The translations under genes and the position numbers were made by a program. The notes under the pieces are model-generated. The model was not told the DNA's origin. It did not search any database and saw only the letters and a list, made by a program, of their open reading frames with translations. This document shows positions 17,129-57,733 of a stretch of 57,783 bases of DNA, one piece after another (the stretch's first letter is position 1; every line of letters starts with the position of its first letter). This DNA comes from Candidatus Micrarchaeota archaeon. Its GTDB lineage: Archaea; Micrarchaeota; Micrarchaeia; Anstonellales; Anstonellaceae. The stretch is taken from positions 15,966 through 73,748 of the forward strand of contig JAOAJL010000004.1 of the NCBI GenBank assembly GCA_026414185.1. Reading direction: 5' to 3'.

Positions 17129-17509
17129 ATGGGCAGCAAAATAAGGGGCATGAGGCTCTTGCTTGCCGTTGTTTTCTTGCTTGCCGCCGCCCAGCTTTCA
17201 TATTCTGGAAAGCCCGCTCCCCCACCCAGTCAGCAGGCTTCTCCTCTTCAAGATGTCAACGAGGCGGTATTTGCGCTTTGCAATGCCCTCAAATCCCTCC
17301 TTCCAGTAGTTGCGATGCTTATGATAGTGTTCGGAGCGGTGGTTTATGCCGCTGGGCAGATAATGGGGGCGGAAACAAGGGCAAGGGCAAACGTCTGGGC
17401 AACTGCGGCAGTCACGGGCGCGCTTGTTGCCATGCTGATTGCAACGGTCGCTCCAGCAGTTCTTTCAATGATGGTTCCTGGCGTTCAGTGCGACGTATTC
17501 GCTCCGTAA
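17129..17509 (+). CDS. VirB2/TrbC-like (T4SS-type) pilin, copy 1
   Basis: Signal-like N-terminus, short linker, then two hydrophobic helices joined by a basic loop (GAETRARANVW); 48/67 identical to the 57386 paralogue by manual alignment. Confidence 0.7.
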   Translation: MGSKIRGMRLLLAVVFLLAAAQLSYSGKPAPPPSQQASPLQDVNEAVFALCNALKSLLPVVAMLMIVFGAVVYAAGQIMGAETRARANVWATAAVTGALVAMLIATVAPAVLSMMVPGVQCDVFAP

Positions 17510-17530: not shown

Positions 17531-20155
17531 ATGGGTGTAGGAAGAAGCGAGATAGTTCTGATGGCAGTGGCGGCGATTCTTCTGCTTTCTGCGTTTTCGT
17601 TTGCAGAGCAATCCCAGCCGCTTTCCACTGCGGCAATAACCTCAAAGCCGACCTCCGCTGTTTTTGTGCCAAAGGAAACTTCGGCAAAAATAAGGAAGGC
17701 GGATGTTGACTGGAAAGATGCGAGGATAGGCTACAACAATACCAGCCGCAATTTCACGGTGGTGATAAGCGCCTATGCTTTCAACAATTCAACAGGCAGG
17801 CTCTACAAGACAGGGACTGCAAACAACACAAGCGTCATTGTGGTTTACCAGGGAAGCGCGGCTGACAGATACAACCTTGTTGTGATAACTGGACCGCTGA
17901 AAACTGGCAAGACTTACGGCTCCTCAGCCACTCTCAGACGCGGGGAGGAGGCTCCGATTGCTGTGGAGCCTGACAAGAACTATGTGGTTAGAAAATGGGA
18001 AGTTTTGATGGGCGAATGCACGGTGAAGAACCCCTATGCGCCTTCTACGGAAGTGGCTATTTTTTCCTCTGACAAAAGAACATGCGTGGTTGAAGCACAG
18101 ATGGGCAGCCTTCTTGACAGATACACGGGGGTTGCGACCTCTGGCGCTGAAGGAAAAGCGGTTTCCACCGGCACTGCGGGCGGAAAAGCAAATGCAGTCT
18201 GCACCGCTGCAAAGCCGGTATGCCCTGAAGGCACGCTTCTTGAAATTTCATCAGACCAGTTTGGTTGCCCGATTTACAACTGCAAAAAAACAGGGGCGGG
18301 TTGTCCAGTAGTAAAGCCCGACTGCCCACCAGGGAGCGTCTTGACGGAAGCTTACTCCCCTGACAAAGCGTCTGGCTGCGCAGCTTACGAATGCAGGAAG
18401 CTTTCCTGCCCGATAGCTTCAAGCGCCGCCCCTGGAGGCGTCAATATCTGGGAGGACTGCTCACTTTACGGCGGTGTTAAGCCCCCGCAGTGGATTGACG
18501 AGCTTGGATGCGTGCATGCCTGCCTGGAAACGAAGAAAACCTGCCCGACAAGCCAGCCGATACTTGAAGATTGCTCGGTCTTCGCAGGCGCGGTGCCTGC
18601 TGAGCCGTGGCTTGATGAAAATGGCTGCCTTCACAAGTGCAAAGGCTCTCCGCTTTGCACAGCAAAAAGCCAGCCTGTTTTGGTAGACTGCGGCAAAATC
18701 ACAACGACGGTAAGCTGGCTCAACCAAAAGACCGGATGCTGGGAGGCATGCAAGCCCCCCGCTGTCTGCCCGATTGATGGTGTTATCGCGGATATTGATT
18801 GCGGAACTTCGCCGGGCATTGGAATTCAGACTAAGTATGTTGATGAGCAGGGATGCGTGCATGTGTGCAAGCCTGCCGCCGCAGTATGCCCTGTGAAGGG
18901 CGGGATAATTTATGACATTGACTGCTCTTCAACTGCGGCTGCTGCAGTGGTGCCTGAATACACTGACAAGGACGGCTGCATCCACAAGTGCAAAAAGCAG
19001 ACCGTATCTGGCTGCGATACCAAAACCATAATTGAAGTGGACTGCTCTATGATGGGCAGGGTGGCAGCCCAGCCTTGGAAAGGAGAGGATGGCTGCCTCT
19101 ACAAATGCTCTTCCTCAAAATCCTGCCCGACGAAGGCTGTGAAGTATGTGGATTGCGCGGCTTATGGAGCGGTTATGCCCGAAAAGTGGGTTGGAGAGGA
19201 TGGGTGCACATATGCCTGCCTGGCAAAAGAGAAGAAATGCCCAAATGCGCAAGACCCGACGTATGTGGATTGCGCGGCAAGCACAAACCTGCCTTCGTAT
19301 ATTGATGAGAACGGCTGCACCTACCTCTGCAAAAAGACGCCTGTGTGCTCCCAGAAGGGAGTTCGGCTTGTGGACTGCTCTGCTGGAATTTCAGGAAAGG
19401 AGGGTGTTTGGGTTGGAGAGGATGGGTGCGCTTACGCATGCAAGAAAGCGCTTGTCTGTCTCTCCAGGGGTCTAAATTATGTGGACTGCCCGGACATCTT
19501 GCCCGAAGGATTCAGCTGGACTGATGATTCCGGATGCAAGTTTGCCTGCAGGAAAAAGGCGCTGTGTGCATCAGCTATGCCGGTGGTAAAGACGGACTGC
19601 CCGCCGACATCGCCGGCAAGCTATGTTGATGCCCAGATTGGTTGCACGGTGATTTGCAGGAATGTGGCGGAAGCTTTTGTCCCAAAAAACCAGACCAATC
19701 AAAGCAAGCCCGACTTGGTGATAAGCCAGATTTCAATCCCAGCCACAGTGACTGTCAATGTCCGCGTTTATGGAAGCATAACGACTAAAAACGTCGGTCA
19801 AGGGCATGCCGGCAATTCCACGACCGCCTATTACATAAACGGCGCTTTCGTCAACAGCATTCCAGTTCCGCCTTTGCCGCCAGGGGCCTCAAGCACGGGC
19901 AACGCAAGCTTCGTGTGCCTGCGCGCAGGGACTTATGCATTTAGCGCCAAGGCTGACTATTTGGGGGCAATCTTAGAGGAGAACGAGACCAACAACGAAA
20001 AGAACGTGACTTTCAGCTGCGTTCTTTCAAGCGGACAGGTGCAGACATCGCCTGTCGGCTCGGAAAGCATAGTTGCCTCCATGGCGGACACCTCAGGCAA
20101 TCTTTATGCCAAGGTGATGGGCATTTTAGGAGTGCATCTGGAAAGCTACAGGTAG
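17531..20155 (+). CDS. Secreted Cys-rich repeat protein with C-terminal CARDB-like domain, 874 aa
   Basis: Signal peptide; 13 four-Cys repeats; PDLVISQI...NVGQGHAG...ADYLGAILEENETNN CARDB-like motifs. Confidence 0.85.
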   Translation: MGVGRSEIVLMAVAAILLLSAFSFAEQSQPLSTAAITSKPTSAVFVPKETSAKIRKADVDWKDARIGYNNTSRNFTVVISAYAFNNSTGRLYKTGTANNTSVIVVYQGSAADRYNLVVITGPLKTGKTYGSSATLRRGEEAPIAVEPDKNYVVRKWEVLMGECTVKNPYAPSTEVAIFSSDKRTCVVEAQMGSLLDRYTGVATSGAEGKAVSTGTAGGKANAVCTAAKPVCPEGTLLEISSDQFGCPIYNCKKTGAGCPVVKPDCPPGSVLTEAYSPDKASGCAAYECRKLSCPIASSAAPGGVNIWEDCSLYGGVKPPQWIDELGCVHACLETKKTCPTSQPILEDCSVFAGAVPAEPWLDENGCLHKCKGSPLCTAKSQPVLVDCGKITTTVSWLNQKTGCWEACKPPAVCPIDGVIADIDCGTSPGIGIQTKYVDEQGCVHVCKPAAAVCPVKGGIIYDIDCSSTAAAAVVPEYTDKDGCIHKCKKQTVSGCDTKTIIEVDCSMMGRVAAQPWKGEDGCLYKCSSSKSCPTKAVKYVDCAAYGAVMPEKWVGEDGCTYACLAKEKKCPNAQDPTYVDCAASTNLPSYIDENGCTYLCKKTPVCSQKGVRLVDCSAGISGKEGVWVGEDGCAYACKKALVCLSRGLNYVDCPDILPEGFSWTDDSGCKFACRKKALCASAMPVVKTDCPPTSPASYVDAQIGCTVICRNVAEAFVPKNQTNQSKPDLVISQISIPATVTVNVRVYGSITTKNVGQGHAGNSTTAYYINGAFVNSIPVPPLPPGASSTGNASFVCLRAGTYAFSAKADYLGAILEENETNNEKNVTFSCVLSSGQVQTSPVGSESIVASMADTSGNLYAKVMGILGVHLESYR
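18200..19657 (+). repeat. 13 tandem protein repeats, consensus C-x(5-16)-(D)C-x(10-17)-GC-x3/4-C
   Basis: Units such as CPTKAVKYVDCAAYGAVMPEKWVGEDGCTYAC; the nucleotide block TGGGTTGGAGAGGATGGGTGC recurs in two units. Confidence 0.9.
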
Positions 20156-27686: not shown

Positions 27687-28802
27687 ATGGAAGTTGCGCT
27701 TTTCACCGACTCGTACCTGCCGCTGAGGGACGGAGTGGTCTCCTCAATCCTCAACCTGCGCAAGGGGCTTGGCAGGAAAGGCTGGAAGATGCACATCTTC
27801 GCCCCTTCGCTTCCCCATCAAAAGCCAGAGCGGCGCGTCTATCGCTACCCTTCGGTAAGCTTTCCGCCTTATCCTGATTACCATGCGGCGCTGCTTCCCG
27901 CCCGCCATCCGCCGGAAGCGCTCAGGGCGCGCGTTGCGCTTGTGCATTCCAAGGCGATGGTGAATATGGGGCTTGCCGCCCTCTCCTATGCAAAGAGGAA
28001 AAACCTGCCTGCGATGGCTTCGCTTGAAACCCTAATTCCCGACGGCGTCCATTACGTCCTTCCGATAAAGGAGCTTCACAGGTTAGGAAAGGCGGTAGGC
28101 TGGGCGTATCTTCGCTGGTTTTACTCAAAATTTGACCTTGTGAGCGCTCCTTCGCGCCACGCGCAGGCGCTTATGGCTGAAAACGGCATAGAGGCGGTTC
28201 TTCTTCCTTCGCCTGTGGATACCAGTCGGTTCAAGCCGACAGGCAGGGGCGGGAAAATAAGGAAGGAGCTTGGGCTTGAGGGCAAGAAGATAGTCCTCTC
28301 AGTTGGCAGGCTGGTGAGAGAAAAAAACTATTCCCTTCTTTTGAGTGCCGCCAAGCACATGCGGGATGAGAGAGTGGTGTTTTTAGCAGTTGGCAGGGGA
28401 CCCTATCTTGACGCGTTTAAGAAAGAAGTGCAGCGCGCCGGGCTTTCAGGAAGCTTTCATTTCGCGGGTTTTGTGCCCGACAATATTCTTGCAGACTATT
28501 ACAACGCTGCAGACTGCTTTGTCTTTCCCTCTTCATTTGAAACCCAGGGGCTTTCTGCCCTTGAAGCCCTCTCCTGCGGCAAGCCAGTCTGCGCGCTGGA
28601 TGACACCCCGATGTCCGAATTCATAATTGAGGGCAGGAACGGCTATGTGTTTTCGGATGCGGAGGAATGCGCGGAAAAGCTTTCAGCCTGCCTTGAAAAC
28701 GCAGGCAGAATGGCGGCTTGCGCGCGACGAACCGCCCTTGCCTACTCAATCCCAAGATGCACCTCCCTCCTGCTGAGGTGCTACAGGACGCTTTTGCAAT
28801 AG
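27687..28802 (+). CDS. Glycosyltransferase family 4 (GT-B)
   Basis: VALFTDSYLPLRDGVVSS, LSVGRLVREKN, FPSSFETQGLSALEALSCGKPV. Confidence 0.92.
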   Translation: MEVALFTDSYLPLRDGVVSSILNLRKGLGRKGWKMHIFAPSLPHQKPERRVYRYPSVSFPPYPDYHAALLPARHPPEALRARVALVHSKAMVNMGLAALSYAKRKNLPAMASLETLIPDGVHYVLPIKELHRLGKAVGWAYLRWFYSKFDLVSAPSRHAQALMAENGIEAVLLPSPVDTSRFKPTGRGGKIRKELGLEGKKIVLSVGRLVREKNYSLLLSAAKHMRDERVVFLAVGRGPYLDAFKKEVQRAGLSGSFHFAGFVPDNILADYYNAADCFVFPSSFETQGLSALEALSCGKPVCALDDTPMSEFIIEGRNGYVFSDAEECAEKLSACLENAGRMAACARRTALAYSIPRCTSLLLRCYRTLLQ

Positions 28803-28827: not shown

Positions 28828-28836
28828 CTTTTAAGC
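28828..28836 (+). promoter_or_regulatory. TATA-like box for the ATPase operon
   Basis: AAACCCTTTTAAG about 30 nt upstream of ATG 28865, consistent with a leaderless or short-leader transcript. Confidence 0.5.
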
Positions 28837-28864: not shown

Positions 28865-29674
28865 ATGGTGGATGCGAAGTATTTTGCTTACGGTGCAGGT
28901 GCGCTTGCCCTCTTGGGCGCGATGGGCTGCTTTGTGGGGCAGGGCAATGCGATAGTTTCGTTCATATCCGGCCTGCTTTGCCTCATAGGAGCCATAGGCG
29001 CGGTGGCGCTTTTCAAATACGGCTATCTTCTCATCCCCCTTCTTACCCAGAGAGCGAAGATAGTGCAGATAATGGAGGGCGGCTACGAGATTCCGCCTTC
29101 AAATGACGTCATTCTCAAAAATGTCGGCGGGGTTTATTACGCAAGCAAATTCTTGGGGGTCAGGATTTTTGAGTCCGCCTCAGAAAAATCAGTGGAGGAA
29201 AACGTGGTCTATTCGGAATACTTTGAGCGCGCCATATCATCAGTAAAATACGTGACGAAGTTCGCCATAATGGTCTACATGAAGGACATAACGGACTACC
29301 GCAACCGGATAGAGACCAAGCATGCTGAGGCGCAGCTTAGGCTTGCGCGCGAGAGGGACAAGCCGGACCCTGATGTGCTCAAGCTTGACAGGTTTGAAAA
29401 GGAGGTTGCAATGTGGGAGGCGCAGATAAACAAGCTCACCCGCGGGATAAAGCCGATGGGCTGCGTCTCATACGTGATGACGACTGCTGTGGGCGTCAGC
29501 AAGGAAGCGGCGATGGCAGCCGCAACTGCGCAGGCAAATGAGCTGAAAGCCACCATCGCCAATGCGCTCAATGTCCAGGTTGAGCTGCTCAGCGGCGATG
29601 AGATGCTGCGCTGCTTCCAGTGGGAAACCGCCATTCCGCCCACGCCGCAGGAGCTTGAGCAGGCGCTGCTGTAG
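28865..29674 (+). CDS. Two-TM protein with TraC/VirB4 N-terminal-like domain
   Basis: N-terminal TM hairpin; VILKNVGGVYYASKFLGV..SVEENVVYSEYFERAISSV..DITDYRNRI; ends ANELKATIANALNVQVELLSGDEML. Confidence 0.6.
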   Translation: MVDAKYFAYGAGALALLGAMGCFVGQGNAIVSFISGLLCLIGAIGAVALFKYGYLLIPLLTQRAKIVQIMEGGYEIPPSNDVILKNVGGVYYASKFLGVRIFESASEKSVEENVVYSEYFERAISSVKYVTKFAIMVYMKDITDYRNRIETKHAEAQLRLARERDKPDPDVLKLDRFEKEVAMWEAQINKLTRGIKPMGCVSYVMTTAVGVSKEAAMAAATAQANELKATIANALNVQVELLSGDEMLRCFQWETAIPPTPQELEQALL

Positions 29675-29720
29675 GGCAGCAGGCGCTAGCCCGACACGCA
29701 AGCGGAAAGGAAGTGTCTGT

Positions 29721-31331
29721 ATGGGAAGGCTGAAGCTTTCGGAGCTTGACAACATTGACCTTGCGAGGCGCAACATATTCGTCAGACCGCCCGAGCCGCC
29801 GGATGACGTGCTGATGTCCGACCCGACAAACTCAATCTACATCGGAAGGACAAAGATATTCCACGTCCCGTTTTACTGGACCTATCAGAAGACCACCAAC
29901 CCGCATATCTGCGTGGTGGGGATAACGGGTTCTGGGAAATCCTACTTTGTGAAAACCTTCCTCACCCGAGCAAGCTATGTGTGGGGGACAAACGCGTTCA
30001 TAATAGACTGGGCTGGGGAGTACAAGGACTGGGTGAAGCAGGTGGGTGGAAAGGTCATCTCATTGGGACGAGGCTCTTCAATCAACCTGCTTGACACGGC
30101 TGGCATGAAGCCCAATGACCGAATAAAGCAGGTTATGAGGACCCTGGACATGCTGACGGACATAGGGCGCTACCCAGAGCAGCGCCGCCTGACCGAGCTT
30201 GCTATTGAAAAGGCGTATGTCAACAACAAATTCAAGCTTGACTCAAAACTCCAGGTTGACGGGCTGGGAAGGCCGCTGCGCCCGCCCACCCTCAAAGACG
30301 TCCAGAAGATACTTGAGGACATGAGCGAGGCTGGAACCTATGAGTTCCCCGCCGAGCTTGAAAATGCGATTTACCGCATAAGGCAGTTCACACGCGAAGG
30401 CGAGGACTTCTTCGCCCAGCAATCCACCATAGACCTTGAAAAGCTGACCAAGGCAGGGCTTGTGGACCTTGACATCTCCGGCCTTCCAGATGAGACTTTC
30501 AGGGGGCTTGCGGCGCTTTCCATGCTCCAGTTCATAAAGGAGAAGATGAGGGAGGAGGGCTGGTCCTCAACAAAAGGGCTCAAGCTTCTTGTAGTGCTTG
30601 ACGAAGCCTGGAAGGTTGCCAAAGACGACAATTCCGATGCGGTGATGATTGTGCGCGAGGGAAGGAAATACCAGTTCGGGCTTATTGTGGCGTCGCAGAA
30701 CCCAACGGACATCTCTGAGGCGATTTTCTCAAACGTGGGAACCACCTTCATCCTGCGCGTGAAGTTTGAGAGGTTTTTGGACTATCTGCAGTCCACGCTG
30801 AATTTCTCCGACTACATGAGGGAGGGCATCGCCAAGCTTGGAGTCGGACAGGCGGCGGTGAACATGGCTTTCCAGACAAATGTGGATTTTCCGGAAACGT
30901 TCTTGCTTGAGAAGATAGACGGAGAGGAGCCGATGCAGGAGTTCTTCCTTGACTTGGACAAGGTGCTGACGAAAGAGGAGCTTGCCATGGAGGGCGCTGT
31001 GCGCTCGGCAAGCTTTGAAAAAGACGAGCTCAAAAAGAAGCTGAGAAGCTATGGCATGGGGGAGGAGCAGTCGGATGAGATAGTCGGGCTGTTTGCAAAG
31101 AAAGGAAGGCGGATGGAAATCTCCGCCTTTGTGGTGCTGCTTTCGCGCTATGGCATAGCCCGCGTGAATATCTCAAGCTTCCTGAAAGATTTGGGACTTG
31201 ACGACAACTTGGTGATAAACGTGCTTGCGAAGGCAGATGAGCTTGAATTGGAGCTTTCCGATACGGACATAACGGAATACATACTGCAGGCAGAGGCTGC
31301 TGCGGCTGGGCAGGCGGAAGGCGCCTCTTGA
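29721..31331 (+). CDS. VirB4/HerA/TraG-like (DUF87) P-loop ATPase with helical C-terminal domain, 536 aa
   Basis: Walker A GITGSGKS, IIDWAGEY, Walker B VVLDEAW, REGRKYQFGLIVASQNP; start moved from 29562 to ATG 29721. Confidence 0.88.
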   Translation: MGRLKLSELDNIDLARRNIFVRPPEPPDDVLMSDPTNSIYIGRTKIFHVPFYWTYQKTTNPHICVVGITGSGKSYFVKTFLTRASYVWGTNAFIIDWAGEYKDWVKQVGGKVISLGRGSSINLLDTAGMKPNDRIKQVMRTLDMLTDIGRYPEQRRLTELAIEKAYVNNKFKLDSKLQVDGLGRPLRPPTLKDVQKILEDMSEAGTYEFPAELENAIYRIRQFTREGEDFFAQQSTIDLEKLTKAGLVDLDISGLPDETFRGLAALSMLQFIKEKMREEGWSSTKGLKLLVVLDEAWKVAKDDNSDAVMIVREGRKYQFGLIVASQNPTDISEAIFSNVGTTFILRVKFERFLDYLQSTLNFSDYMREGIAKLGVGQAAVNMAFQTNVDFPETFLLEKIDGEEPMQEFFLDLDKVLTKEELAMEGAVRSASFEKDELKKKLRSYGMGEEQSDEIVGLFAKKGRRMEISAFVVLLSRYGIARVNISSFLKDLGLDDNLVINVLAKADELELELSDTDITEYILQAEAAAAGQAEGAS

Positions 31332-31356
31332 AAAACCAAAAACAGCGGTGGAAGGA

Positions 31357-31656
31357 ATGGCAAAGACGCTTTTCTTTGAAAAGGAGGAGCTTGGGCGCAA
31401 GCTGCGCACCTGCGGCTTGGATGAGCTGCATGTCGCAGAAATCAGCAGGGTATTTGAGAAAAACAACAAGCACATAGATGTGGTGAGCTTTGTCATCATG
31501 CTTGAGCGGTATGGGGTGCAGAGGGCGGACATCTCCTCTTTTTTGCACGACATCGGGGTGGACGAGCCCACGCTCATCAACATATTCTCAAAGGCGGACT
31601 TCACAAGGCTTGGCATGGGAAACCGGGAGATTACGCAGGTTGTGTTGGCTGACTGA
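31357..31656 (+). CDS. Stand-alone paralogue of the ATPase C-terminal domain, 99 aa
   Basis: 34/75 identical, ungapped, to the ATPase segment FEKDEL...KAD (manual count). Confidence 0.88.
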   Translation: MAKTLFFEKEELGRKLRTCGLDELHVAEISRVFEKNNKHIDVVSFVIMLERYGVQRADISSFLHDIGVDEPTLINIFSKADFTRLGMGNREITQVVLAD

Positions 31657-31681
31657 AAATTGTTGGATGGAGGGATTTGGC

Positions 31682-32086
31682 ATGGCGAAGGTCTGTATAA
31701 TATGCGAAAAGGAGACGGATGGCAGCGCGGTGGCGGATGACTTTGTCATCCGGACAATAAGGGCTGTCAAGCAGAGGTTCGGGATTGCGAAGAACAACAT
31801 CCTTGTGGTCTGCTCCTCATGCATGGAGGAGCACCGCAAAAGGCGCGAAAGGTATGAGCGGAACCTTGTGATGCACGTCTTAGTTGCCGCAATCATCCTC
31901 TTTGCCTTTGTGCTTTTGCCGGTTTTCACCACCGGCTTTTCGGTCTCGGCGCTGGTTCTGGGCATCCTGCTTGCCGCAATCATCATCGGGCTTTCAATAT
32001 TCTCCCATCATCCCAAGCTTGCGCCCGAAACGCAAAAGCCCAAGCCCGAGGAAAAGAAAGGACAGCGCGGCAGGAAAAGGAAGTGA
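31682..32086 (+). CDS. Zn-finger (CxxC...CxxC) two-TM membrane protein with basic tail
   Basis: CIICEK and CSSCMEE, two hydrophobic helices, KKGQRGRKRK C-terminus. Confidence 0.78.
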   Translation: MAKVCIICEKETDGSAVADDFVIRTIRAVKQRFGIAKNNILVVCSSCMEEHRKRRERYERNLVMHVLVAAIILFAFVLLPVFTTGFSVSALVLGILLAAIIIGLSIFSHHPKLAPETQKPKPEEKKGQRGRKRK

Positions 32087-32092
32087 TTTTGA

Positions 32093-32881
32093 ATGGTGGA
32101 AATAAAGCTGCCTGAGGGCATGAGGCAGGCGGGGGGGCAAAAGCCGCCCCCTGCCCCACCGCAGCCGCAACCTACATCCCCCATTGTTGGCGGGTTTCGC
32201 ATAGCGGCAAAAAGAAAATGCACCATTGAGGAGCTTTCGCAGAGGTTTGCGGAGCTTTCCTTCCTTCAGCTGACCGTTGAAAAGGATGCGCTTGCCGCGC
32301 TCAACGTGGAGTCGCGCGACATCCAGAAAAACCCCTATCTTTTTTCAATCATCTATTTCAAGCCCGATTGCGTTGAGGCGCTTTATACCTGCCTGCCAAA
32401 CATGAGCCCGAAAAAGCGCCGCATAGACGTGCTGCGCCAGTTCCTCAACCTTCTGACGATAGTGGAGGACTGCTACCAAGTGGAGATGAAGCAGATTTAC
32501 CAGCTTCTTGAAGCCTCAGTGGCGGACATGACTGAATATGTTTCGCTTGACTACGACCGGCTTTTTTCCCTCTATGACAATCTCAAAAGCGAGGTTGCAG
32601 CTCTGCAAAAGAAGGTAAAGGACCTCACGGATGGAAACGCTGCGCTTTCAAAAGAAAACTACGAGCTGAAAAGCAAAAATGACGAGCTTGTGCTTAAAAT
32701 CCGCGGGCTTGAAACCTTCAGCGACTCGGTGCTTGCCCTAAAAATACAGGAGTGGCTTTCAGAACACAAGGGCGAGATAAACATAGCCGATTTCTCCAAG
32801 GTTTACAACGTGCCTGAAACGCGCGTTGAGCAGATGCTCAACAAGCTTGTGACAGAGGGTTATCTTGAAATTAAGGGCTGA
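32093..32881 (+). CDS. Hypothetical protein: Pro-rich N-terminus, alpha/beta domain, coiled coil, C-terminal winged-helix-like domain
   Basis: Heptad-rich LKSEVAALQKKVKDLTDGNAALSKENYELK; C-terminal EINIADFSKVYNVPETRVEQMLNKLVTEGYL. Confidence 0.75.
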   Translation: MVEIKLPEGMRQAGGQKPPPAPPQPQPTSPIVGGFRIAAKRKCTIEELSQRFAELSFLQLTVEKDALAALNVESRDIQKNPYLFSIIYFKPDCVEALYTCLPNMSPKKRRIDVLRQFLNLLTIVEDCYQVEMKQIYQLLEASVADMTEYVSLDYDRLFSLYDNLKSEVAALQKKVKDLTDGNAALSKENYELKSKNDELVLKIRGLETFSDSVLALKIQEWLSEHKGEINIADFSKVYNVPETRVEQMLNKLVTEGYLEIKG

Positions 32882-32904
32882 GGCTGCTCTTTGCGGGTTT
32901 GACT

Positions 32905-35505
32905 ATGGCTGAGGAAAGAGGCGGGCTTGCCCGGCTGAAAATAGCAAAAAAGGCATATGTCTTTGATGTGCGCAAGAAGTATTCTTTGAGCAGAACCTTC
33001 CAGCTGAAAAAAAGCCCCCAAACCCCGCAGGAGCAGCTGAAAGAAGCCGTCGGCAGCCTTTTTGAAAGAAAGAAAAAGCCGGAAGGGCAGCAGGAGGCTG
33101 CGCAGCCCGTTTCGCCTTCCGTTTCACCCCCCGATGCGGTTGCCTCTGCCATAAAAACAGCCGCCTTTGTCGCACTGCTGTTCGTTGTCGGAGGGTTCAT
33201 TTTTTTGTGGATGCAGCTTTCTGCGGCAGGCACGGGCGGCTCCCCGCCCCAAAGACCTGAAGTGTTCTCTGGCTCCTACGACTACTTTGTTTCTGATGCG
33301 GAAATCCTATCAGTGGCGCAGGAGGACAGGATAGGGCGCTCCTTTTTTTTGCTTGTTGAATATTGGGCTGAAAACCTAAGCAGCCTCAATTTCAGCGCTT
33401 CCATCTACCCGACGGCGCCGACGACCCAGGTCTTCCTTCTTGACTATGCGCGGGAAGGCGACGACTGCTACCCTGCCTTCAGGAAGAGCCTTTTTGAGGG
33501 GATGCCGCAGTCAGGCTTTGCGATAAGCGAAATTGAGGTATGGGAGCTTGCCGCGCTGCCGGAAGGGGCGACTGTGATTGTCCCGACCGGATATCTGCCG
33601 CAGGAACTTTTGGGAATCGGCTCAAACTTTGATTATGCGGGGCTTTTGAACAGGGGCGTGAACATAATCTACATCGGCTACCCCTTTGACAGCCTTGCGA
33701 TAGACAGGAGAGGCCAGACTGTTCCGGTGAAGCACTACGCGCTTTCATTTACGAAGGTGCGCGCAGACTCCACGGATGGCTTTCGGCTCTATGACCCGCA
33801 GTATGTCGCAAGCCCGCAGGCGACAGGGGATAGCCGTCTTTTTTCAGGGCATCAGCTTTACGGCTCTGTCTCAGTGGTAAAGGGCGCCAAGGGGGCGATG
33901 CTTTTTTTGCCGCAGACGCTTGATGGCGGATGGCGCGGGGACGGGAAGGCGGCTGCCGAGGACATCATAAGGCTTGTCCGCGAAGCCCTTTGGATGAGCC
34001 CTCTTGCGCAGACGACGCTTCCGGCTGAAGTTGTCGGGGAAGGGAAGGAGCGCAGGATTTCCATCTTCAGCCCGCCTTTTGATGCGGATGGAGGCTATGT
34101 TGAACTTTCCGCGGATGCCAAGGACATGAACGGGATTGGAAGAAGAGGCGTCCAGACCGTAAAGCTATTCAAGACCCAGCGGGGGGAGATGATTCCGCGC
34201 GACCCAAAGACAGTTCCGTTTTACCTCTCAGGGCAGAAGACGAGACTGAACATAAAGCTTGCAGAGCCAACATCCACCCCTGTTGAGCTTTTCATAAGGA
34301 TGTACAAGGATGGAAACCTCTTGCAGGAAGAGAAGCTGGAGCTTGGGCTTACAAATCCGCAGACTGAAAAACCCAAGGATTTCCAGGTCAACGCAGAGCC
34401 AGGAAGATATGTTGTTCATGTGGAGGACAGGGCAGGCAGGGTTTATGCGGCTTGCCAGCTTGACGTCATAGACTTGGACATTGAGCTTTTGGACAGGCCG
34501 GACTGGGGCAGGGGGAAATTCAGGTTTTTCCTTTCTGCCGCAGGGGAGACTGTTTCGCCGCGTTTCTTGACGGTTTCCCTTGACGGGAAGGGGGAGAAGA
34601 AGTATTCGCCAGGCGATTATACCTACGAGGACAAAAAGACGCTTTTGCTCTATGAGCATCCCTATGAGATAAAGCCTGGGAACCACACATTCACTTTCAG
34701 CGCAGGAGAATGGAGCAAGCAGTTTGTCGCAACATACAGACCATCAAGAAACTTTTGGGACAACCCCCTTGTGCTATTCCTCGGCTTCATCTCGCTGGCT
34801 GTCTTTGGCATAGGCTACTTCCTGCGCAAGCCTGAAAAGATGCGCTACGGGCTGGACATACCGGACTTTCCTCCTCTCTCAACCATAAAAATACCGGTCA
34901 AAAGGCAGACTGTCTTGGATATCTTTGAAAGCGTGAATGCAAGCTACGCATGGCAGTACATGCCGCTTAGGCTTGATGAGCTGAAAAATGGGTTCAGACG
35001 GCTTACTTATAACGGGAAGCCGATTTTGGTCGGCGACTTTAACCTTGAACGGATACTCTCCCGCCTTCGCGATGAGGGGTTGGTGAAAGAGGAGCTTGGC
35101 TACTGGGGCAAAACGCAATGGGAAAAGGAAAGCGGCAGGAGCATCAGGTACCTTGCCATGTACAGGATAATGCGCAACGTGTTTGTGAATAACGCGCTGA
35201 GGTTCTCCAAGCTCGGGGCGATGCCCGACTGTGATGTGAAAGTCATAGCTGGCAAGGACGAAATTTACTTCCATATAATGGAGCAGCCGTATGAGCCCAT
35301 AATCCACAAGGCGCTTGCCACCGCAAAGAAAGGGACAACCATGATGGTTTTCAAAAATGAAGAGGAGCGCGACTCCTTTGCCAATTCTCTGACTTCCTCC
35401 TCCAAGCTTGCGGTTGCCCTGAAAATGGAAATCCAAAACGGCAACATCCTCCTGGTGCAGGTGAAAAACGAGATTTCCGCCTTCCTCAAGCAGATTATAA
35501 AGTAA
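32905..35505 (+). CDS. Large two-TM membrane protein with big extracytoplasmic region and cytoplasmic C-terminal domain, 866 aa
   Basis: TM TAAFVALLFVVGGFIFLW, about 510 aa beta-rich region, TM PLVLFLGFISLAVFGIGYFL, then wHTH-like LERILSRLRDEGLVKEELGYWG. Confidence 0.8.
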   Translation: MAEERGGLARLKIAKKAYVFDVRKKYSLSRTFQLKKSPQTPQEQLKEAVGSLFERKKKPEGQQEAAQPVSPSVSPPDAVASAIKTAAFVALLFVVGGFIFLWMQLSAAGTGGSPPQRPEVFSGSYDYFVSDAEILSVAQEDRIGRSFFLLVEYWAENLSSLNFSASIYPTAPTTQVFLLDYAREGDDCYPAFRKSLFEGMPQSGFAISEIEVWELAALPEGATVIVPTGYLPQELLGIGSNFDYAGLLNRGVNIIYIGYPFDSLAIDRRGQTVPVKHYALSFTKVRADSTDGFRLYDPQYVASPQATGDSRLFSGHQLYGSVSVVKGAKGAMLFLPQTLDGGWRGDGKAAAEDIIRLVREALWMSPLAQTTLPAEVVGEGKERRISIFSPPFDADGGYVELSADAKDMNGIGRRGVQTVKLFKTQRGEMIPRDPKTVPFYLSGQKTRLNIKLAEPTSTPVELFIRMYKDGNLLQEEKLELGLTNPQTEKPKDFQVNAEPGRYVVHVEDRAGRVYAACQLDVIDLDIELLDRPDWGRGKFRFFLSAAGETVSPRFLTVSLDGKGEKKYSPGDYTYEDKKTLLLYEHPYEIKPGNHTFTFSAGEWSKQFVATYRPSRNFWDNPLVLFLGFISLAVFGIGYFLRKPEKMRYGLDIPDFPPLSTIKIPVKRQTVLDIFESVNASYAWQYMPLRLDELKNGFRRLTYNGKPILVGDFNLERILSRLRDEGLVKEELGYWGKTQWEKESGRSIRYLAMYRIMRNVFVNNALRFSKLGAMPDCDVKVIAGKDEIYFHIMEQPYEPIIHKALATAKKGTTMMVFKNEEERDSFANSLTSSSKLAVALKMEIQNGNILLVQVKNEISAFLKQIIK

Positions 35506-35576
35506 ACCGCCTTGGCCATAGCCGCACTTAACTTAACCTTATAAAGCTCCCAATCCAACTCAAAACGGGAGTGCGC

Positions 35577-36758
35577 ATGCGGGTGGCAATGCTGGGGTGG
35601 GAATTCCCGCCTTTTGTTTCAGGCGGGCTTGGTGTGCACTGCTTTGAGCTTACGCGCGCTCTTTGCGCAAGAGGGGTGGAGATAGACTTCTTCATGCCGG
35701 TTTCAGGAAAGGAAATCTCCTCCCCCATCCCAAACCTGAGGATAATAGAGGTGGCAAAGACCCAGCTTCGCCCCTATCTTTTCTTCTCAAAGTCTGGCCA
35801 GAGGGCAACCTATGGGCAGAACCTCATAAACGCTGTCAACGAATACTCCGCAAAGTGCGCAGAGACGGTCGCCGAATACGCAAGGCAGCGCCGCTACGAT
35901 CTTATCCACGCGCACGACTGGATGACTGCCAGAGCGGCTTCTGCGCTGAAAAAATCCCTCCTTCTTCCCCTTGTGCAGACATTCCACTCCACTGAGTTTG
36001 ACCGCACAAGCTGGCCGTGGGACTACATACTTGACATAGAGCGCGCAGCAGCGGCAAACGCAGACCTCATAATCGCGGTAAGCAGGCGCACCAAGGCGCA
36101 GGTGATGAGGCTCGGGGCTGACGAGCGCAAGATACGCGTTGTTTATAACGGCGTGGATATGAGAAGGTTTGCCTCAGCGCAGATTGACGGGCAGGCCGCC
36201 GATGATTTCAAGCGCAACCGCAGAGTAGTCCTTTTTTTGGGTAGGCTGACTGAGCAGAAGGGGCCCGTGCAGTTCCTTCACGCCGCAGCAAAGGTCCTCT
36301 CCAAGGACAAAAACGTGCTTTTCTTGGTGGCTGGCAAAGGCGAGCTTCTGCCCCTTCTCATCAACATGAGCCTGCAGCTTGGCATCTCTGAAAACGTCAG
36401 ATTCTTGGGCTATCTTTCAGAGGAGGACCAGCGCAGGATATACAAGCTTGCGGATGTCTATGTGATGCCATCAACCTCAGAGCCGTTTGGGATAACCGCC
36501 CTTGAGGCGATGAGCTGCGGCGTGCCAGTCATAATCAGCAAGACCTCCGGGGTGGCGGAGATAGCGAAATCCGCAATAAAGGTTGACTTTTGGGACATAA
36601 ACGCAATGGCGGCTAAGATACTTGCGGTGCTTTATCTGAAGCCTCTGGCAAAAACCATGGGAAAGATGGCATCGGGGGAGGCGGCTGGGCTGAGCTGGGA
36701 GAAAACTGCGGAAGAAACGCTCAAGGTATATAATGAGGCGCTTGCAGCAAGGGGATGA
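35577..36758 (+). CDS. Glycosyltransferase family 4, glycogen-synthase-like
   Basis: MLGWEFPPFVSGGLG, HAHDWMT, FLGRLTEQKG, PSTSEPFGITALEAM; next to GH57. Confidence 0.9.
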   Translation: MRVAMLGWEFPPFVSGGLGVHCFELTRALCARGVEIDFFMPVSGKEISSPIPNLRIIEVAKTQLRPYLFFSKSGQRATYGQNLINAVNEYSAKCAETVAEYARQRRYDLIHAHDWMTARAASALKKSLLLPLVQTFHSTEFDRTSWPWDYILDIERAAAANADLIIAVSRRTKAQVMRLGADERKIRVVYNGVDMRRFASAQIDGQAADDFKRNRRVVLFLGRLTEQKGPVQFLHAAAKVLSKDKNVLFLVAGKGELLPLLINMSLQLGISENVRFLGYLSEEDQRRIYKLADVYVMPSTSEPFGITALEAMSCGVPVIISKTSGVAEIAKSAIKVDFWDINAMAAKILAVLYLKPLAKTMGKMASGEAAGLSWEKTAEETLKVYNEALAARG

Positions 36759-39095: not shown

Positions 39096-41801
39096 ATGGC
39101 GTCTTTGGATGGAGGGGAAGTGCGCGGCATGGGCAGGCAGAAGATGCTTGCCACAGTCCAGATGCTCCGGACTGACGAGTCGCTTGGCGGCGCCATACTG
39201 GTTTTCCTTGGGACCCTCTCCCTGCTTCTGTCATTTCCCTTTTACCCCATTTACCTGTCCCCAATCCTGGCTGGGATTTGCGGGGCTGTCGCCTACCGCC
39301 AGCCGCCGCTTGGCACGATAATAGGGATGTTTTTTGCTTTTCCTGCTATTGCCTACCAGGCGCCTGTTCTTGCCTGGGTCTTCACCATCGTCCTTGCAAT
39401 CGCGCTGTTTGAAGCCTGGGAGCACTGGAGCACCATGTCTTTTCTGGAGCTTGCGGTGCTTGCCCCTTTCGCCCCCTTCCCATTCTCCTTCTTTTCGGGC
39501 TTTCTTTTTCTTGCCCTTGGAATTGCCGCGATGAAGTTTGGAAGCAAGCACTCCTTTGCGGTTTCCCTGCCAGCCATACTGGTTGTCCTTCTGCTTTCAA
39601 CCCTCTGGCTCTCTCCAAACTCATCATTCATAACGATAAGAAACGACTACAAGGGGGCATACGGGCCTGCGCTTGAAGAGCTCCAGAACAACAACAAGCC
39701 AGAAGTTGGGCTGGCTGAGCTTCCGATGGCATCGTCGGAGGCAGTCGGCTCCTTTTTTGACATCCAAAACGCCATGAAGGTGGCAGGGGCGCTCTCAAAG
39801 ATATGGGAGAACATTGCGAGGCTTCTTTTTTCTGACTACGCCCTTGTCCAGCTTGCGGTTTGGGCTGCCGCGCTTTTCCTTGTGGGCTTTCTGCCTGCTC
39901 GGATTGAGCATCCCTACAAGCAGACCATCTCTTCCGCTTCCCTCTTTCTTGTCCCAATCGTGAATTCCTTTGCCGCGCCTGCCTTCAACAACCCCTTTGA
40001 CCCGGCATCATTTGTCTATTGCGCCCTCTCGGTAGCCGCAATCGGCATCCTTGAATCGCAGGGGGTGAAGCTGTCCGGCGAGCGGCAGGCGATAAGGCGC
40101 GAAAAGCAAAAGTCATTCGGGAAATTCGGGGTGCAGGACTTGGGCGACTCTGAGGGAGTGGATTCGCTTTCCGATGTCGGCGGTTATGAGGATGTGAAAA
40201 ACGAGCTTCGCGAGGCGATTGTGGCGCCTTTGCAAAAGCGCGAGCTTGCCTACACCTACGGGATAAAGCCGCCAACAGGCATCCTGCTTTTTGGTCCGCC
40301 AGGCACGGGAAAGACCATGCTTATGAAGGCGCTTGCCAAGGAGCTTAACATCGGCTTTTACTACGTCAAGTGCTCGGATTTGCTCTCTGAGTGGTACGGG
40401 GAGAGCGAAAAGAATGTCGCGGAGGTCTTTGCAATCGCGCGCAAGAACGCCCCCTGCGTGCTGTTCTTTGACGAGATAGACTCTATCGGCAAGAAGCGCG
40501 ACGCCTACACCACGGATGATGTCGCGCCACGCATCATGAGCGTGATTCTGGAGGAGCTTGACGGATTTAAGGAGAAGAAAAAAACCGTGATAACGATAGG
40601 CGCCACCAACGCCCCGGACCAGCTGGACCCAGCCCTTATGCGCCCGGGCAGGATGGACAAGATAATATACATGCCGCTGCCTGACTTTGAGGCAAGAAAG
40701 GCGATATTCAAGGTCCATCTCTCCAAGCTGCCAACCGAAAAGGACATTGACTTTGGCAAGCTCGCCTCCATGACCGAGCGCTACTCAGGGGCGGATATAA
40801 AAAACATCTGCACGGAGGCAAGCCGCTTGGCTGCGCGCGATGCGCTGAAGGCAGACGTTGTCGTGCCGGTTTCCATGCGGCACATAATCAGCGTGATAAG
40901 GAAGATGAAGCCCTCGGTTTCCATTGACCAGCTTGAAACCTACAACAAGTTCAGAATGGACTACGAGCGAAGAAGCGAGGCAGAGGAGAAAAAGCCGGAT
41001 GAAAAAGGGGTGCGCTGGGAGGACGTGGCTGGCTTGGACGAGGTGCGGAAGGTGCTTCTTGAGGCAATTGAAATCCCACTTCTCCATGAGGATTTGATGG
41101 CTGAGATGGATGTGAAGCCCTCAAAAGGGCTGCTGCTTTTCGGACCGCCTGGGTGCGGAAAGACGATGATTGTGAAGGCGGCGGCAAATGAGCTTAACGC
41201 AAACTTCCTAACAATAACCGGCTCCGAGCTTATGCGCGGCCGCGAGCGGGACCCGCGGGCGTATGTGAAGGAGGTTTTCAACAGGGCTCGCGAGTCCGCC
41301 CCTGCCCTTGTCTTCATTGACGAGGTTGAGGCGCTTGCTCCCAACCGCGATGAATACCGCGGCGGCATATTGACCGAGCTTTTGCAGGAGCTTGACGGGG
41401 TAAAGGAGCTGAAAAATGTGATGATAATAGGGGCGACAAACAAGCCATCTGCGCTTGACCCAGCCATACTGCGCCCGGGGCGGTTTGACAAGATAATATA
41501 TATCCCGCCGCCTGACGAGCCTGCAAGAAGGCAGATATTCACCACGAACCTGGCAAAGTTCCTCAAGAACGTGGATGTGGACAGGCTTGCCAAGGCAACC
41601 GAGGGCTACTCAGGTGCGGACATCGCCTCAATCTGCCAGGAGGTTAAGATGCAGCTTGTCCGCGACAGGCTCAAAGGAGCCCCCTCCACCCTAACGACCG
41701 AGGCGGTGCTTCGGGTTATTTCCTCCCGGCGCCCCTCAATAACCCAGCGCGACTTGCGCGAGTATTTTGCATTCATGCAGGAGTATGGGGAGAGAAAGTA
41801 G
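39096..41801 (+). CDS. Tandem AAA+ ATPase (CDC48/p97-like D1-D2) fused to an N-terminal polytopic membrane domain, 901 aa
   Basis: About 9-10 hydrophobic helices in the first ~325 aa; GPPGTGKT / FFDEID / ALMRPGRMD and GPPGCGKT / FIDEVE / AILRPGRFD. Confidence 0.92.
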   Translation: MASLDGGEVRGMGRQKMLATVQMLRTDESLGGAILVFLGTLSLLLSFPFYPIYLSPILAGICGAVAYRQPPLGTIIGMFFAFPAIAYQAPVLAWVFTIVLAIALFEAWEHWSTMSFLELAVLAPFAPFPFSFFSGFLFLALGIAAMKFGSKHSFAVSLPAILVVLLLSTLWLSPNSSFITIRNDYKGAYGPALEELQNNNKPEVGLAELPMASSEAVGSFFDIQNAMKVAGALSKIWENIARLLFSDYALVQLAVWAAALFLVGFLPARIEHPYKQTISSASLFLVPIVNSFAAPAFNNPFDPASFVYCALSVAAIGILESQGVKLSGERQAIRREKQKSFGKFGVQDLGDSEGVDSLSDVGGYEDVKNELREAIVAPLQKRELAYTYGIKPPTGILLFGPPGTGKTMLMKALAKELNIGFYYVKCSDLLSEWYGESEKNVAEVFAIARKNAPCVLFFDEIDSIGKKRDAYTTDDVAPRIMSVILEELDGFKEKKKTVITIGATNAPDQLDPALMRPGRMDKIIYMPLPDFEARKAIFKVHLSKLPTEKDIDFGKLASMTERYSGADIKNICTEASRLAARDALKADVVVPVSMRHIISVIRKMKPSVSIDQLETYNKFRMDYERRSEAEEKKPDEKGVRWEDVAGLDEVRKVLLEAIEIPLLHEDLMAEMDVKPSKGLLLFGPPGCGKTMIVKAAANELNANFLTITGSELMRGRERDPRAYVKEVFNRARESAPALVFIDEVEALAPNRDEYRGGILTELLQELDGVKELKNVMIIGATNKPSALDPAILRPGRFDKIIYIPPPDEPARRQIFTTNLAKFLKNVDVDRLAKATEGYSGADIASICQEVKMQLVRDRLKGAPSTLTTEAVLRVISSRRPSITQRDLREYFAFMQEYGERK

Positions 41802-57385: not shown

Positions 57386-57733
57386 ATGGGAAAGGCTGCG
57401 GCGGCTGTGCTTTTGCTTGTTTCCTTGGCTTTTGCCAGCACTCCCCAATCAACGATGGTGCTTTCAAGCGTCCATTATGCCATGTCCGCGTTTTGCAAGT
57501 CCCTAGTCAGCTTGCTTCCTGTTGCGGCGATGATGATGATCGTGCTGGCAGGAGTGATTTACGCCGCTGGGCAGATGATGGGAGCGGAAACAAGGGCAAG
57601 GGCAAACGTGTGGGCAACTGCGGCGCTGACAGGGGCGCTCATTGGGATACTGATATATGTGGTTGCGCCTGCGGTTATCGGCATGATGCTTTATCCTGAC
57701 AACCCAGAACAGATTAAGCTTAACTGCCAATGA
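57386..57733 (+). CDS. VirB2/TrbC-like pilin, copy 2
   Basis: Signal peptide, then FCKSLVSLLPVAAMMMIVLAGVIYAAGQMMGAETRARANVWATAALTGALIG; C-terminal Cys. Confidence 0.7.
   Translation: MGKAAAAVLLLVSLAFASTPQSTMVLSSVHYAMSAFCKSLVSLLPVAAMMMIVLAGVIYAAGQMMGAETRARANVWATAALTGALIGILIYVVAPAVIGMMLYPDNPEQIKLNCQ

Follow-up and report, generated by a model that had tools for sequence, protein, structure and literature searches.

The window, a 57,783-nt stretch of a Candidatus Micrarchaeota archaeon contig, contains at positions 28865-35505 six co-oriented open reading frames on the + strand, here termed g1 to g6, which are separated by gaps of only 6-46 nt and enclosed by two GT4 glycosyltransferase genes. 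Two pilin genes lie apart from this operon. The features are:

17129-17509, + strand: VirB2/TrbC-like pilin gene, signal peptide and helical hairpin, apart from the operon
27687-28802: GT4 glycosyltransferase gene, flank of the operon
28829-28835, + strand: TATA-like box, TTTTAAG, about 33 nt before the g1 ATG (sequence match only)
28865-29674, + strand: g1, 269 aa, two N-terminal hydrophobic helices
29721-31331, + strand: g2, 536 aa, HerA/VirB4-superfamily ATPase domain
31348-31656, + strand: g3, 102 aa, free-standing copy of the g2 C-terminal domain
31682-32086, + strand: g4, 134 aa, CxxC...CxxC, then two membrane helices and a basic tail
32093-32881, + strand: g5, 262 aa, alpha/beta domain, long helix and winged helix
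32905-35505, + strand: g6, 866 aa, two-pass membrane protein
35571-36758: GT4 glycosyltransferase gene, flank of the operon
57386-57733, + strand: second VirB2-like pilin gene, 54% identical to the pilin at 17129

The initial annotation had described six tightly spaced genes behind a TATA box, and all six reading frames were confirmed. The position of the TTTTAAG match would fit a single promoter and a near-leaderless mRNA for the operon. No gene for a relaxase, an integrase, NurA, Mre11 or Rad50 was seen among the flanking ORFs scanned, again as annotated, and no replication gene was seen in the operon flanks. The flanks carry GT4, GH57, nucleoside phosphorylase and 5S rRNA genes, and the GC content of the locus is not atypical. 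The same window also encodes FtsZ.

The first two genes appear to encode a single motor. g1 is a membrane hairpin of two transmembrane helices followed by a domain of about 200 aa, which had been called TraC-N-like. Profile comparison (hhalign) of 94 g1-family sequences with the N-terminal 270 aa of seven fused, 813-913-aa CedB-like ATPases gave a probability of 98.5% (E 2.7e-15) over 245 colinear columns, bearing out that description; the fused ATPases themselves cover the CedB model end to end (E 1e-34 to 1e-42). Judged by these profiles, g1 is the split-off N-terminal part (transmembrane helices plus NTD) of a CedB/VirB4-type ATPase, and it is always found directly upstream of g2, with tandem g1 duplicates in many lineages. 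In g2 only about 60 aa precede the Walker A motif (GITGSGKS, residue 67), DEAW is found at 294 and a helical domain of about 100 aa forms the C-terminus; the Pfam matches are DUF87, AAA_10 and TraG P-loop. The architecture of the CedB/CedD-type motor, with transmembrane helices, a VirB4-like NTD and an ATPase domain, is present and divided between g1 and g2, and at the level of sequence the comparisons show the two to make up one CedB/VirB4-type ATPase encoded by two genes. Inteins with homing endonucleases occur in orthologues.

The best NCBIfam matches of g2 were CedD, CedB and VirB4-like models at 59-76 bits, against 43-49 bits for HerA. The scores for CedD (75.6 bits, cut-off 600) and CedB (75.2 bits, cut-off 700), like all the NCBIfam scores, are far below the family equivalog cut-offs, so g2 is a relative and not an orthologue of these proteins. 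The nearest relatives of g1 and g2 are Ced-like ATPases that stand beside a CedA-like gene. Homologues of the CedA-like gene beside the fused ATPase are labelled Nitrososphaeria, Brockarchaeota and Bathyarchaeia, and the CedA-like protein beside one fused CedB-like ATPase matches at its N-terminus a solved pilin chain (8dfu, E 4.9e-5). A tree of the ATPase domain, with small sampling and long branches, separated TraC, PrgJ-like VirB4 and the VirB4 of Patescibacteria (support 91/93) from the Micrarchaeota, TACK Ced-like and unnamed representatives. The initial label of VirB4-like ATPase needs correction here: taken alone, the ATPase domain falls with the archaeal Ced-like enzymes and is not nested within the bacterial-type VirB4 clade.

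The operon had been predicted to be conserved as a unit, and about 55 of the 78 Micrarchaeota loci, whose flanking genes differ, do show the order g1-g2-(g3)-g4-g5-g6; since the same order is found in dozens of species genomes, the arrangement is not due to chance. Of 401 Micrarchaeota genomes 342 have the ATPase, as do 168 of the 188 of high quality (89%) and 127 of 155 genera, and the g2 orthologues are 53-90% identical across the phylum. There is also a paralogous, type II operon with the order pilin-channel-g1'-g2'-g5'. The g1-g6 module is vertically inherited across most Micrarchaeota.

Gene neighbourhoods and phyletic distribution both tie the module to VirB2-like pilins and also to a family of CedA/VirB6-like membrane proteins, hereafter B6, that has expanded. 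The pilin at 17129 matches PF18895 (T4SS_pilin) with E 4e-5 and 24.0 bits, slightly under the cut-off of 26.6; within its family PF18895 was matched by 7 of 13 members and PF04956 (TrbC/VirB2) by 4 of 13, and most Micrarchaeota pilins of this family carry a signal peptide. The 57386 pilin scores 135 bits against the pilin profile, a circular figure because the profile was built partly from that pilin. Homologues of the 17129 pilin stand directly upstream of g1 at L016, L024, L028, L060, L072, L080 and L083, and in all pilin genes adjoin g1 in at least eight genomes besides the one studied here. The B6 proteins are polytopic, with 6-7 helices, and number 6-17 copies per genome. Arrays of 3-5 B6 genes precede g1-g1-g2 directly in about 20 loci, and type II operons have one B6 gene between the pilin and g1'. 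Searches of Pfam, NCBIfam and PDB sequences gave no match for B6. In hhalign the family aligned with the TACK CedA-like family (78%, E 1.9e-5) over 249 colinear columns with a common G..R..R..G motif, and these profiles lend moderate support to a B6-CedA relationship; the B6 N-terminus weakly resembles pilin (E 3.5e-4).

Co-occurrence of the ATPase with the pilins was likewise as expected from the initial annotation. All 20 ATPase-positive genomes have both pilin and B6, 18 of 20 ATPase-negative genomes have neither, and the presence of pilin and ATPase is concordant in 38 of the 40 genomes tested. In the genome studied here the pilin and B6 genes are dispersed and unlinked to the operon, so their joint function with it rests on the other genomes. 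This genome has 3-4 pilin genes and, away from the operon, at least eight CedA/VirB6-like paralogues, six of them in tandem on contig C32; the apparatus is therefore not the minimal one first proposed.

g3 had been read as a duplicate of the ATPase C-terminal domain, and over 100 aa it does share 41% identity with g2 residues 423-522 (E 2e-26). Roughly every second type I locus contains it. EF-hand pairs are a weak match to the g3 family profile (calmodulin, E 2e-5 to 1e-4); inspected by eye, the g3 sequence has no canonical Ca-binding loop. For g4, g5 and g6 no known family was matched at cut-off. g4 is part of type I operons and missing from type II, and its cysteines 5, 8, 44 and 47 are kept in 98, 87, 89 and 65% of 54 homologues, respectively, an N-terminal four-cysteine motif that looks zinc-ribbon-like. 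The AlphaFold2 model of g5 (pLDDT 90) has an alpha/beta domain, a 75-residue coiled-coil helix and a C-terminal winged helix; Foldseek against the PDB returned no match below E 0.026, and the winged helix weakly resembles that of CdvB (2xvc, E 5e-4). All 228 g5 relatives bearing an organism name are Micrarchaeota or 'uncultured archaeon', and g5 is a lineage-specific core subunit common to type I and type II operons. The model of g6 (AlphaFold2, pLDDT 87) places membrane helices at 78-105 and 621-640, with a predicted ectodomain of about 490 aa composed of beta-sandwich, alpha/beta and Ig-like domains and a predicted cytoplasmic part containing a conserved winged helix and an alpha/beta domain. 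Mean identity is highest in the cytoplasmic domain (35%, against 20-26% for the ectodomain). Foldseek matched g6 to S-layer, adhesin and macroglobulin-type Ig-like arrays (E 4e-8 to 1e-5), and no T4SS part was among the 50 best matches. Because g4, g5 and g6 have no T4SS counterpart, the roles given to them below are guesses.

We consider it probable, at about 0.72, that the six genes encode the cytoplasmic motor and lineage-specific scaffold of a chromosomal, T4SS-derived pilus and translocation machine, and that its ancestry lies in the type IV secretion (conjugation) apparatus, with the archaeal Ced and Ted systems as its closest described relatives. We found no description of this machine in the searchable literature. 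In the mechanism we propose, g1 would hold a g2 hexamer at the membrane, and ATP hydrolysis by g2 would draw pilin subunits out of the membrane into a lipid-associated pilus of the conjugative type, polymerised on a platform of CedA/VirB6-like proteins. The same ATPase may also push a macromolecule through this platform. Together g3, g4, g5, the C-terminal domain of g2 and the cytoplasmic domain of g6 might form a docking or regulatory layer specific to Micrarchaeota, and the fast-evolving Ig-like ectodomain of g6 would cross the cell envelope as a stalk or adhesin.

It is possible that the machine carries no substrate at all and makes only a contact filament with g6 as its stalk, the ATPase serving solely to extract and assemble pilin. 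VirB4 is a pilus-biogenesis ATPase in T4SSs (PMC12102498), each genome has several pilin paralogues, and in its ectodomain g6 is similar to adhesins and S-layer Ig-like arrays. A VirD4-type coupling protein (PF02534) was not found in the genome either, and among the genes seen beside the operon there was none for a relaxase or for DNA processing; however, coupling protein and relaxase are likewise absent from Ced and Ted, and yet Ced imports DNA (PMC9905601, PMC11868833). Nor would a purely adhesive filament obviously require the 6-17 VirB6/CedA-like copies. Sequence data do not distinguish assembly alone from assembly with transport, and on balance we regard a purely adhesive role as unlikely.

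We regard as far less probable a HerA- or FtsK-like DNA motor for repair, segregation or division, tethered to the division site by g5 and the membrane proteins. With the ATPase domain alone, HerA structures score as well as VirB4 (80 against 63 bits), a profile of g2 relatives finds its best structure matches in HerA (1.6e-21 to 3e-18), and in the tree HerA is placed loosely near the base of the archaeal group, on a long branch. The very high sequence conservation suggests a core function, and the g5 winged helix weakly matches those of CdvB and EAP30, similarities that are generic and under the cut-offs. However, the genome has a separate HerA (contig C22, 11884-13602), near Rad50 and upstream of a 315-aa gene, a candidate NurA, and FtsZ is encoded in the window. 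In BLASTP g2 scored only 45 bits against this HerA and 177-194 bits against TACK Ced-like ATPases, so we rejected g2 as the HerA of this genome, in keeping with the initial expectation that the two would not group. g2 also lacks the HerA-type N-terminal barrel (HAS-barrel) and is partnered by g1, a membrane protein homologous to the CedB-type transmembrane and N-terminal region. The ATPase is moreover kept in tight synteny with pilins and polytopic channel-like proteins and occurs in the same genomes as these, which also argues against this role. The decayed remnant of an integrated conjugative element or plasmid, not domesticated by the host, is barely credible: conjugative elements typically carry VirB4-like ATPases and VirB2-like pilins, 2454 of the 2753 plasmid records with a match to g2 are classed as conjugative and orthologues carry homing inteins, but dozens of species share one gene order between differing housekeeping flanks with a well conserved ATPase found in most genera, the GC content is unremarkable, neither integrase, relaxase nor replication gene was seen in the flanks, the genome has no T4CP, and no plasmid match spans at least 80% of g2, all the matches listed being under 30% identity.

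A Ced/Ted-like machine invites comparison with Ced itself (CedA, CedA1, CedA2, CedB, CedD and CedE in Sulfolobales and Desulfurococcales, with Ced-like loci in TACK archaea). Both systems are chromosomal, and in that of Micrarchaeota neither a T4CP was found nor a relaxase seen. Both combine a motor of membrane helices, VirB4-like NTD and HerA/VirB4-like ATPase domain with a VirB2-like two-helix pilin; the polytopic CedA, whose N-terminus resembles pilin, has a putative counterpart in Micrarchaeota B6, where this resemblance is weak. In contrast to Ced, the Micrarchaeota motor is split over two genes, often as g1a, g1b and g2, g3 to g6 add four conserved subunits that have no equivalent in Ced, the CedA-like family has grown to many paralogues, and each genome has two or three paralogous systems. 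A signal peptide is present in most Micrarchaeota pilins, as it is in TedC, whereas CedA1 has none. Whereas Ced is a UV-induced repair aid, the present system is spread over most of a phylum of obligate symbionts. Ted (TedA, TedB and TedC in Thermoproteales) has a pilin with a cleavable signal peptide, a seven-helix VirB6-like protein and a VirB4-like ATPase, sometimes dispersed (PMC9905601), and by description resembles the Micrarchaeota system with its VirB2-like pilin, putatively VirB6-like B6 and VirB4-like ATPase; Ted loci have ParA, HerA and Rad50 neighbours, which the Micrarchaeota operon lacks.

Patescibacteria, ultrasmall epibionts, have a phylum-wide, chromosomal and relaxase-poor T4SS with VirB4 and VirB2-like pilins (PMC12102498). 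This MPF-FATA-derived system has pilins of the same Pfam family, PF18895, and is a functional analogy; its VirB4 groups with the monoderm PrgJ-type on the opposite side of the 91/93 split, is only 27-29% identical to the Micrarchaeota ATPase, and is accompanied by recognisable VirB3, VirB6 and VirB8 homologues, unlike in Micrarchaeota. The nanohaloarchaeal SPEARE proteins, membrane proteins of another DPANN group, join an extracellular array of Ig-like domains through a membrane helix to a VirB4-like ATPase in the cytoplasm; they also have a coiled coil, and a second VirB4 gene lies adjacent (PMC10266531). Compared by description, the same set of parts occurs in Micrarchaeota as the separate proteins g6, g2 and g5, whereas SPEARE is one giant fused polypeptide with a VirB4/TraG-like ATPase domain and about 75 Ig-like domains.

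The initial annotation had suggested host contact or the transfer of DNA or protein, and we infer a function of this kind. If the machine is real, DNA may be its cargo, at somewhat less than even odds, and other host-derived material is a slightly weaker candidate; the best precedent is that for DNA import or exchange. More speculatively, and doubtful as a whole, the operon, pilins and CedA/VirB6-like paralogues could form a symbiont-side conduit that takes DNA, nucleotides, lipids or proteins from a Thermoplasmatales-type host, its conjugative-type tube anchored by the Ig-like g6 stalk and g3, g4, g5 and the g2 C-terminal domain acting as a cytoplasmic gate. If this were true, the machine would be indispensable to the DPANN lifestyle, as has been proposed for the T4SS in Patescibacteria.

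The module is among the most conserved non-housekeeping gene sets in Micrarchaeota and offers a concrete, testable machine, in which the pilin genes and the motor are known and four subunits are new. Domesticated conjugation machines of the T4SS/Ced/Ted lineage would thereby extend beyond TACK archaea into DPANN, in a variant whose VirB4-type motor is split, whose channel-protein family is greatly expanded and in which VirB3, VirB8 and VirB10 are not recognisable. The module bears on how DPANN archaea physically get material from their hosts and is a candidate route by which Micrarchaeota exchange material with neighbouring cells. Extensive host-to-symbiont gene transfer has been reported for Micrarchaeota (PMC5498576), and DNA import through this machine, if true, would help to account for it.

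The six genes at window positions 28865-35505, g1 to g6, are + strand ORFs spaced 6-46 nt apart, with a TTTTAAG motif, found by sequence match, ~33 nt 5' of the g1 ATG. Two GT4 glycosyltransferase genes, rightly read as housekeeping flanks in the initial annotation, bound the operon, and farther away are genes for a GH57 glycosidase, a nucleoside phosphorylase and 5S rRNA. The window has an even GC content, and nothing in it marks 28.8-35.5 kb as an island. The presence of an archaeal SRP RNA, 5S rRNA and tRNA-Ser identifies the window as archaeal, and its proteins have close homologues carrying the label Candidatus Micrarchaeota or Anstonellaceae. The assembly consists of 35 contigs (0.96 Mb, completeness 87%). 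Elsewhere in the window, 39096-41801 (+) encodes a protein of 901 aa that has two AAA+ modules, with matches to a Cdc48/Vps4-like lid and to Vps4_C; the AAA matches start only at about residue 390, after a putative N-terminal membrane domain.

When prokaryotic species were scanned, each represented by one genome, 80 loci were recovered: 78 from Micrarchaeota and two from Patescibacteria, the latter at 27-29% identity. The six gene families, the VirB2-like pilins and one polytopic, CedA/VirB6-like membrane protein family, here called B6, were mapped onto these loci, revealing three operon layouts. In type I, the layout of our operon (ATPase 53-90% identical), the order is always g1(-g1)-g2-(g3)-g4-g5-g6, and what precedes it is a set of one to three pilin genes, a tandem array of three to five B6 genes or, as in the window, neither. 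Type II (ATPase 35-47% identical) reads pilin-B6-g1'-g2'-g5' and occurs in the same genomes as type I. The third type, pilin-B6-g1-ATPase-coiled coil-zinc ribbon, is found in a few genomes, for example:

L095, a related locus in another genome, 3772-8000: pilin, B6, g1-like protein, 374-aa ATPase, 192-aa coiled-coil protein and 77-aa CxxC...CxxC protein

The 374-aa ATPase shares the same C-terminal helical domain. The 77-aa protein has no membrane helices and by eye resembles a soluble form of the g4 zinc ribbon; the g4 profile did not match it. Copies 43-48% identical to this type were observed in four sampled Micrarchaeota genomes. The ATPase itself is present in 342 of 401 Micrarchaeota genomes, in 168 of the 188 of high quality and in 127 of 155 genera, and the genes flanking the operon vary among genomes. 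In some ATPase orthologues from other Micrarchaeota (P0122, P0121; L038:5237-8380), inteins that contain LAGLIDADG homing endonucleases occupy two different catalytic sites, one right after the GKS of Walker A and the other shortly before Walker B; the resulting proteins are 1026-1196 aa long.

As first described, g1 has two N-terminal membrane helices and g2 is a compact DUF87 ATPase, which also matches AAA_10 and the TraG P-loop in Pfam. The best NCBIfam models for g2 were CedD, CedB and VirB4-like (59-76 bits), with HerA at 43-49 bits, every score being far below the family cut-offs. Searching 1.84 billion representative proteins, we found proteins of 813-913 aa that are 30-34% identical to g2 and have an N-terminal extension of ~280 aa. 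These fused TACK-archaeal relatives, the Ced-like ATPases, cover the CedB model over its full length (E 1e-34 to 1e-42), and one of their genes adjoins that for a 291-aa protein with a CedA1 Pfam domain. The N-terminus of this 291-aa family, with named homologues in Nitrososphaeria, Brockarchaeota and Bathyarchaeia, matches a solved pilin chain, 8dfu (E 4.9e-5). A g1 profile of 94 homologues is colinear with the N-terminal 270 residues of the fused ATPases (hhalign 98.5%, E 2.7e-15, 245 columns). By this colinearity g1 and g2 together are a CedB/VirB4-type ATPase, with its membrane hairpin, N-terminal domain and ATPase domain split over two genes. Compared directly with solved VirB4 N-terminal domains, g1 gave no sequence match.

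Could g2 instead be a repair HerA, or belong to a division machine? Profile searches of PDB sequences with the g2 relatives were ambiguous, HerA scoring 80 bits with partial coverage and VirB4 63 bits with near-full coverage; PHROGs gave distant ATPase matches only. Within its own genome g2 scores 45 bits against HerA and 443 bits against the paralogue on contig C11. Its scores against the Ced-like proteins of TACK archaea are 177-194 bits. The genome's HerA gene (contig C22, 11884-13602) is followed by a 315-aa gene, a candidate NurA, and by Rad50, and window 54859-55815 (-) encodes FtsZ (Tubulin and FtsZ_C domains), which provides a conventional protein for cell division. Since HerA-Rad50 and FtsZ are encoded separately, g2 is not the repair HerA, and we see no sign of a division machine.

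In an ATPase-domain tree built with few reference sequences, long branches and a single HerA, the Micrarchaeota sequences are monophyletic (100/98), with the window's type nested inside the paralogous type. Both types group with the Ced-like and unnamed archaeal proteins, and a 91/93 split places F-type TraC, PrgJ-like VirB4 and patescibacterial VirB4 on the opposite side. The HerA branch, 3.3 substitutions long, has an unresolved placement at the base of the archaeal group. The tree agrees with the published analysis of CedB and CedD, in which the ATPase domains fall in the HerA clade and the N-terminal domains are VirB4-like (PMC11868833). As the ATPase domain alone is ambiguous, both in the tree and in the PDB profiles, it is architecture and context that assign the operon to a secretion or pilus system.

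Partners were sought in the window's own genome with profiles made from the related loci. Three signal-peptide-type pilins were found, one of them on C11 and the other two in the window, where the family profiles recovered both of the pilins initially proposed as partners. Eight B6 paralogues are present, six in a tandem array and one each on C11 and C6. The principal features are:

Window 17129-17509: pilin
Window 57386-57733: pilin
C22 96057-96314 (-): short pilin, 85 aa, without signal peptide, of the kind that heads type II operons
C32 33511-40696 (-): six tandem B6 genes
C11 87923-90290: type II pair g2'-g5', with g1' 19 kb distant
C6 1-1376: B6 paralogue
C6 1462-1863: g4 paralogue, directly upstream of the B6 paralogue
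C6 10468-12513: g6 paralogue, adjoining another two-pass membrane protein (465 aa)

The short pilin is not linked to the type II ATPase on C11, nor is the B6 array linked to the operon ATPase. PF18895 (T4SS_pilin) was detected in 7 of 13 members of the pilin family and PF04956 (TrbC/VirB2) in 4. Directly 3' of the pilin gene at 17129, window 17531-20155 (+) encodes an 874-aa secreted CARDB-domain protein, presumably with many Cys repeats, as taken from the first sequence reading. Divergent from the B6 array, within C32 33511-47265, an ORF of 2206 aa, predicted to have two membrane helices, may encode a further surface part of the same machine. From the adjacency on C6, g4 may act together with B6 proteins.

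B6 has no match in Pfam, NCBIfam or PDB sequences. Alignment to the TACK CedA-like family (hhalign 78%, E 1.9e-5, 249 columns), with a common G..R..R..G motif, gives moderate support for a relationship to CedA. The first B6 hairpin is weakly pilin-like (E 3.5e-4), paralleling the likeness reported in the Ced system between CedA and the pilin CedA1 (PMC9905601). Two other VirB6 candidates were dropped: a polytopic ORF of 226 aa close to the 57386 pilin, and a seven-helix protein that is encoded beside the short C22 pilin and has no homologue at the related loci. Across 20 ATPase-positive and 20 ATPase-negative genomes, pilin and B6 were both present in all 20 positives and both missing from 18 of the negatives. 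Pilin and B6 occur together in the remaining two negatives, genomes of 88-89% completeness whose families usually carry the ATPase. Of the 22 genomes with B6, 20 have 6-17 matches each, and the other two have 1 and 4.

The remaining subunits also have the features first ascribed to them. The g3 protein duplicates the g2 C-terminal domain (41% identity to g2 residues 423-522); both are weakly EF-hand-pair-like, with the canonical Ca-binding loop absent. A conserved four-Cys motif and two membrane helices are present in g4, whose topology, read from sequence as a cytoplasmic zinc ribbon, basic tail and short external loop, led us to reject it as a pilin. The predicted fold of g5 (pLDDT 90) comprises an alpha/beta domain, a 75-residue helix, the expected coiled coil, and a winged helix; its named database relatives are all Micrarchaeota or 'uncultured archaeon'. 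Faint matches to CdvB_HTH, EAP30 and the 2xvc winged helix, below cut-offs, raised a link between g5 and cell division or ESCRT, which we rejected because they are generic, FtsZ is encoded in the window and Foldseek against the PDB returned nothing significant for g5. The 866-aa g6 is a two-pass membrane protein (pLDDT 87; helices 78-105 and 621-640), and in Foldseek its ectodomain between the helices, a beta-sandwich, an alpha/beta domain and tandem Ig-like domains, resembles S-layer, adhesin and macroglobulin arrays. Its best conserved part is a cytoplasmic winged-helix and alpha/beta domain, which is not a relative of g5 (hhalign probability 3%). As a VirB6, VirB8 or VirB10 candidate g6 was rejected, having only Ig-like, S-layer and adhesin folds among its Foldseek and profile matches, and none of g3-g6 corresponds to VirB3, VirB6, VirB8 or VirB10.

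We reject a mobile element, as no coupling protein was found in the genome, no integrase or relaxase was seen in the flanks, the operon spans most of the phylum and its flanks vary. In the searchable literature we found no description of this Micrarchaeota system, nor a paper in which Micrarchaeota are linked to CedB or, in a relevant sense, to VirB4; the paper on Mia14 treats type IV pili alone and raises DNA exchange as speculation (PMC5498576). An analogous patescibacterial T4SS (PMC12102498) and the Ced and Ted DNA-transfer systems (PMC9905601, PMC11868833) have already been described.

Taken together, the results support a pilus and translocation machine of Ced/Ted-like type, derived from a T4SS and vertically inherited in Micrarchaeota, whose motor and scaffold are encoded by the operon in the window. 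If it works like VirB4 and Ced, a hexamer tethered to the membrane would drive pilin extraction and the growth of a pilus on a CedA/VirB6-like platform, and it is possible that the machine transports DNA or other macromolecules.
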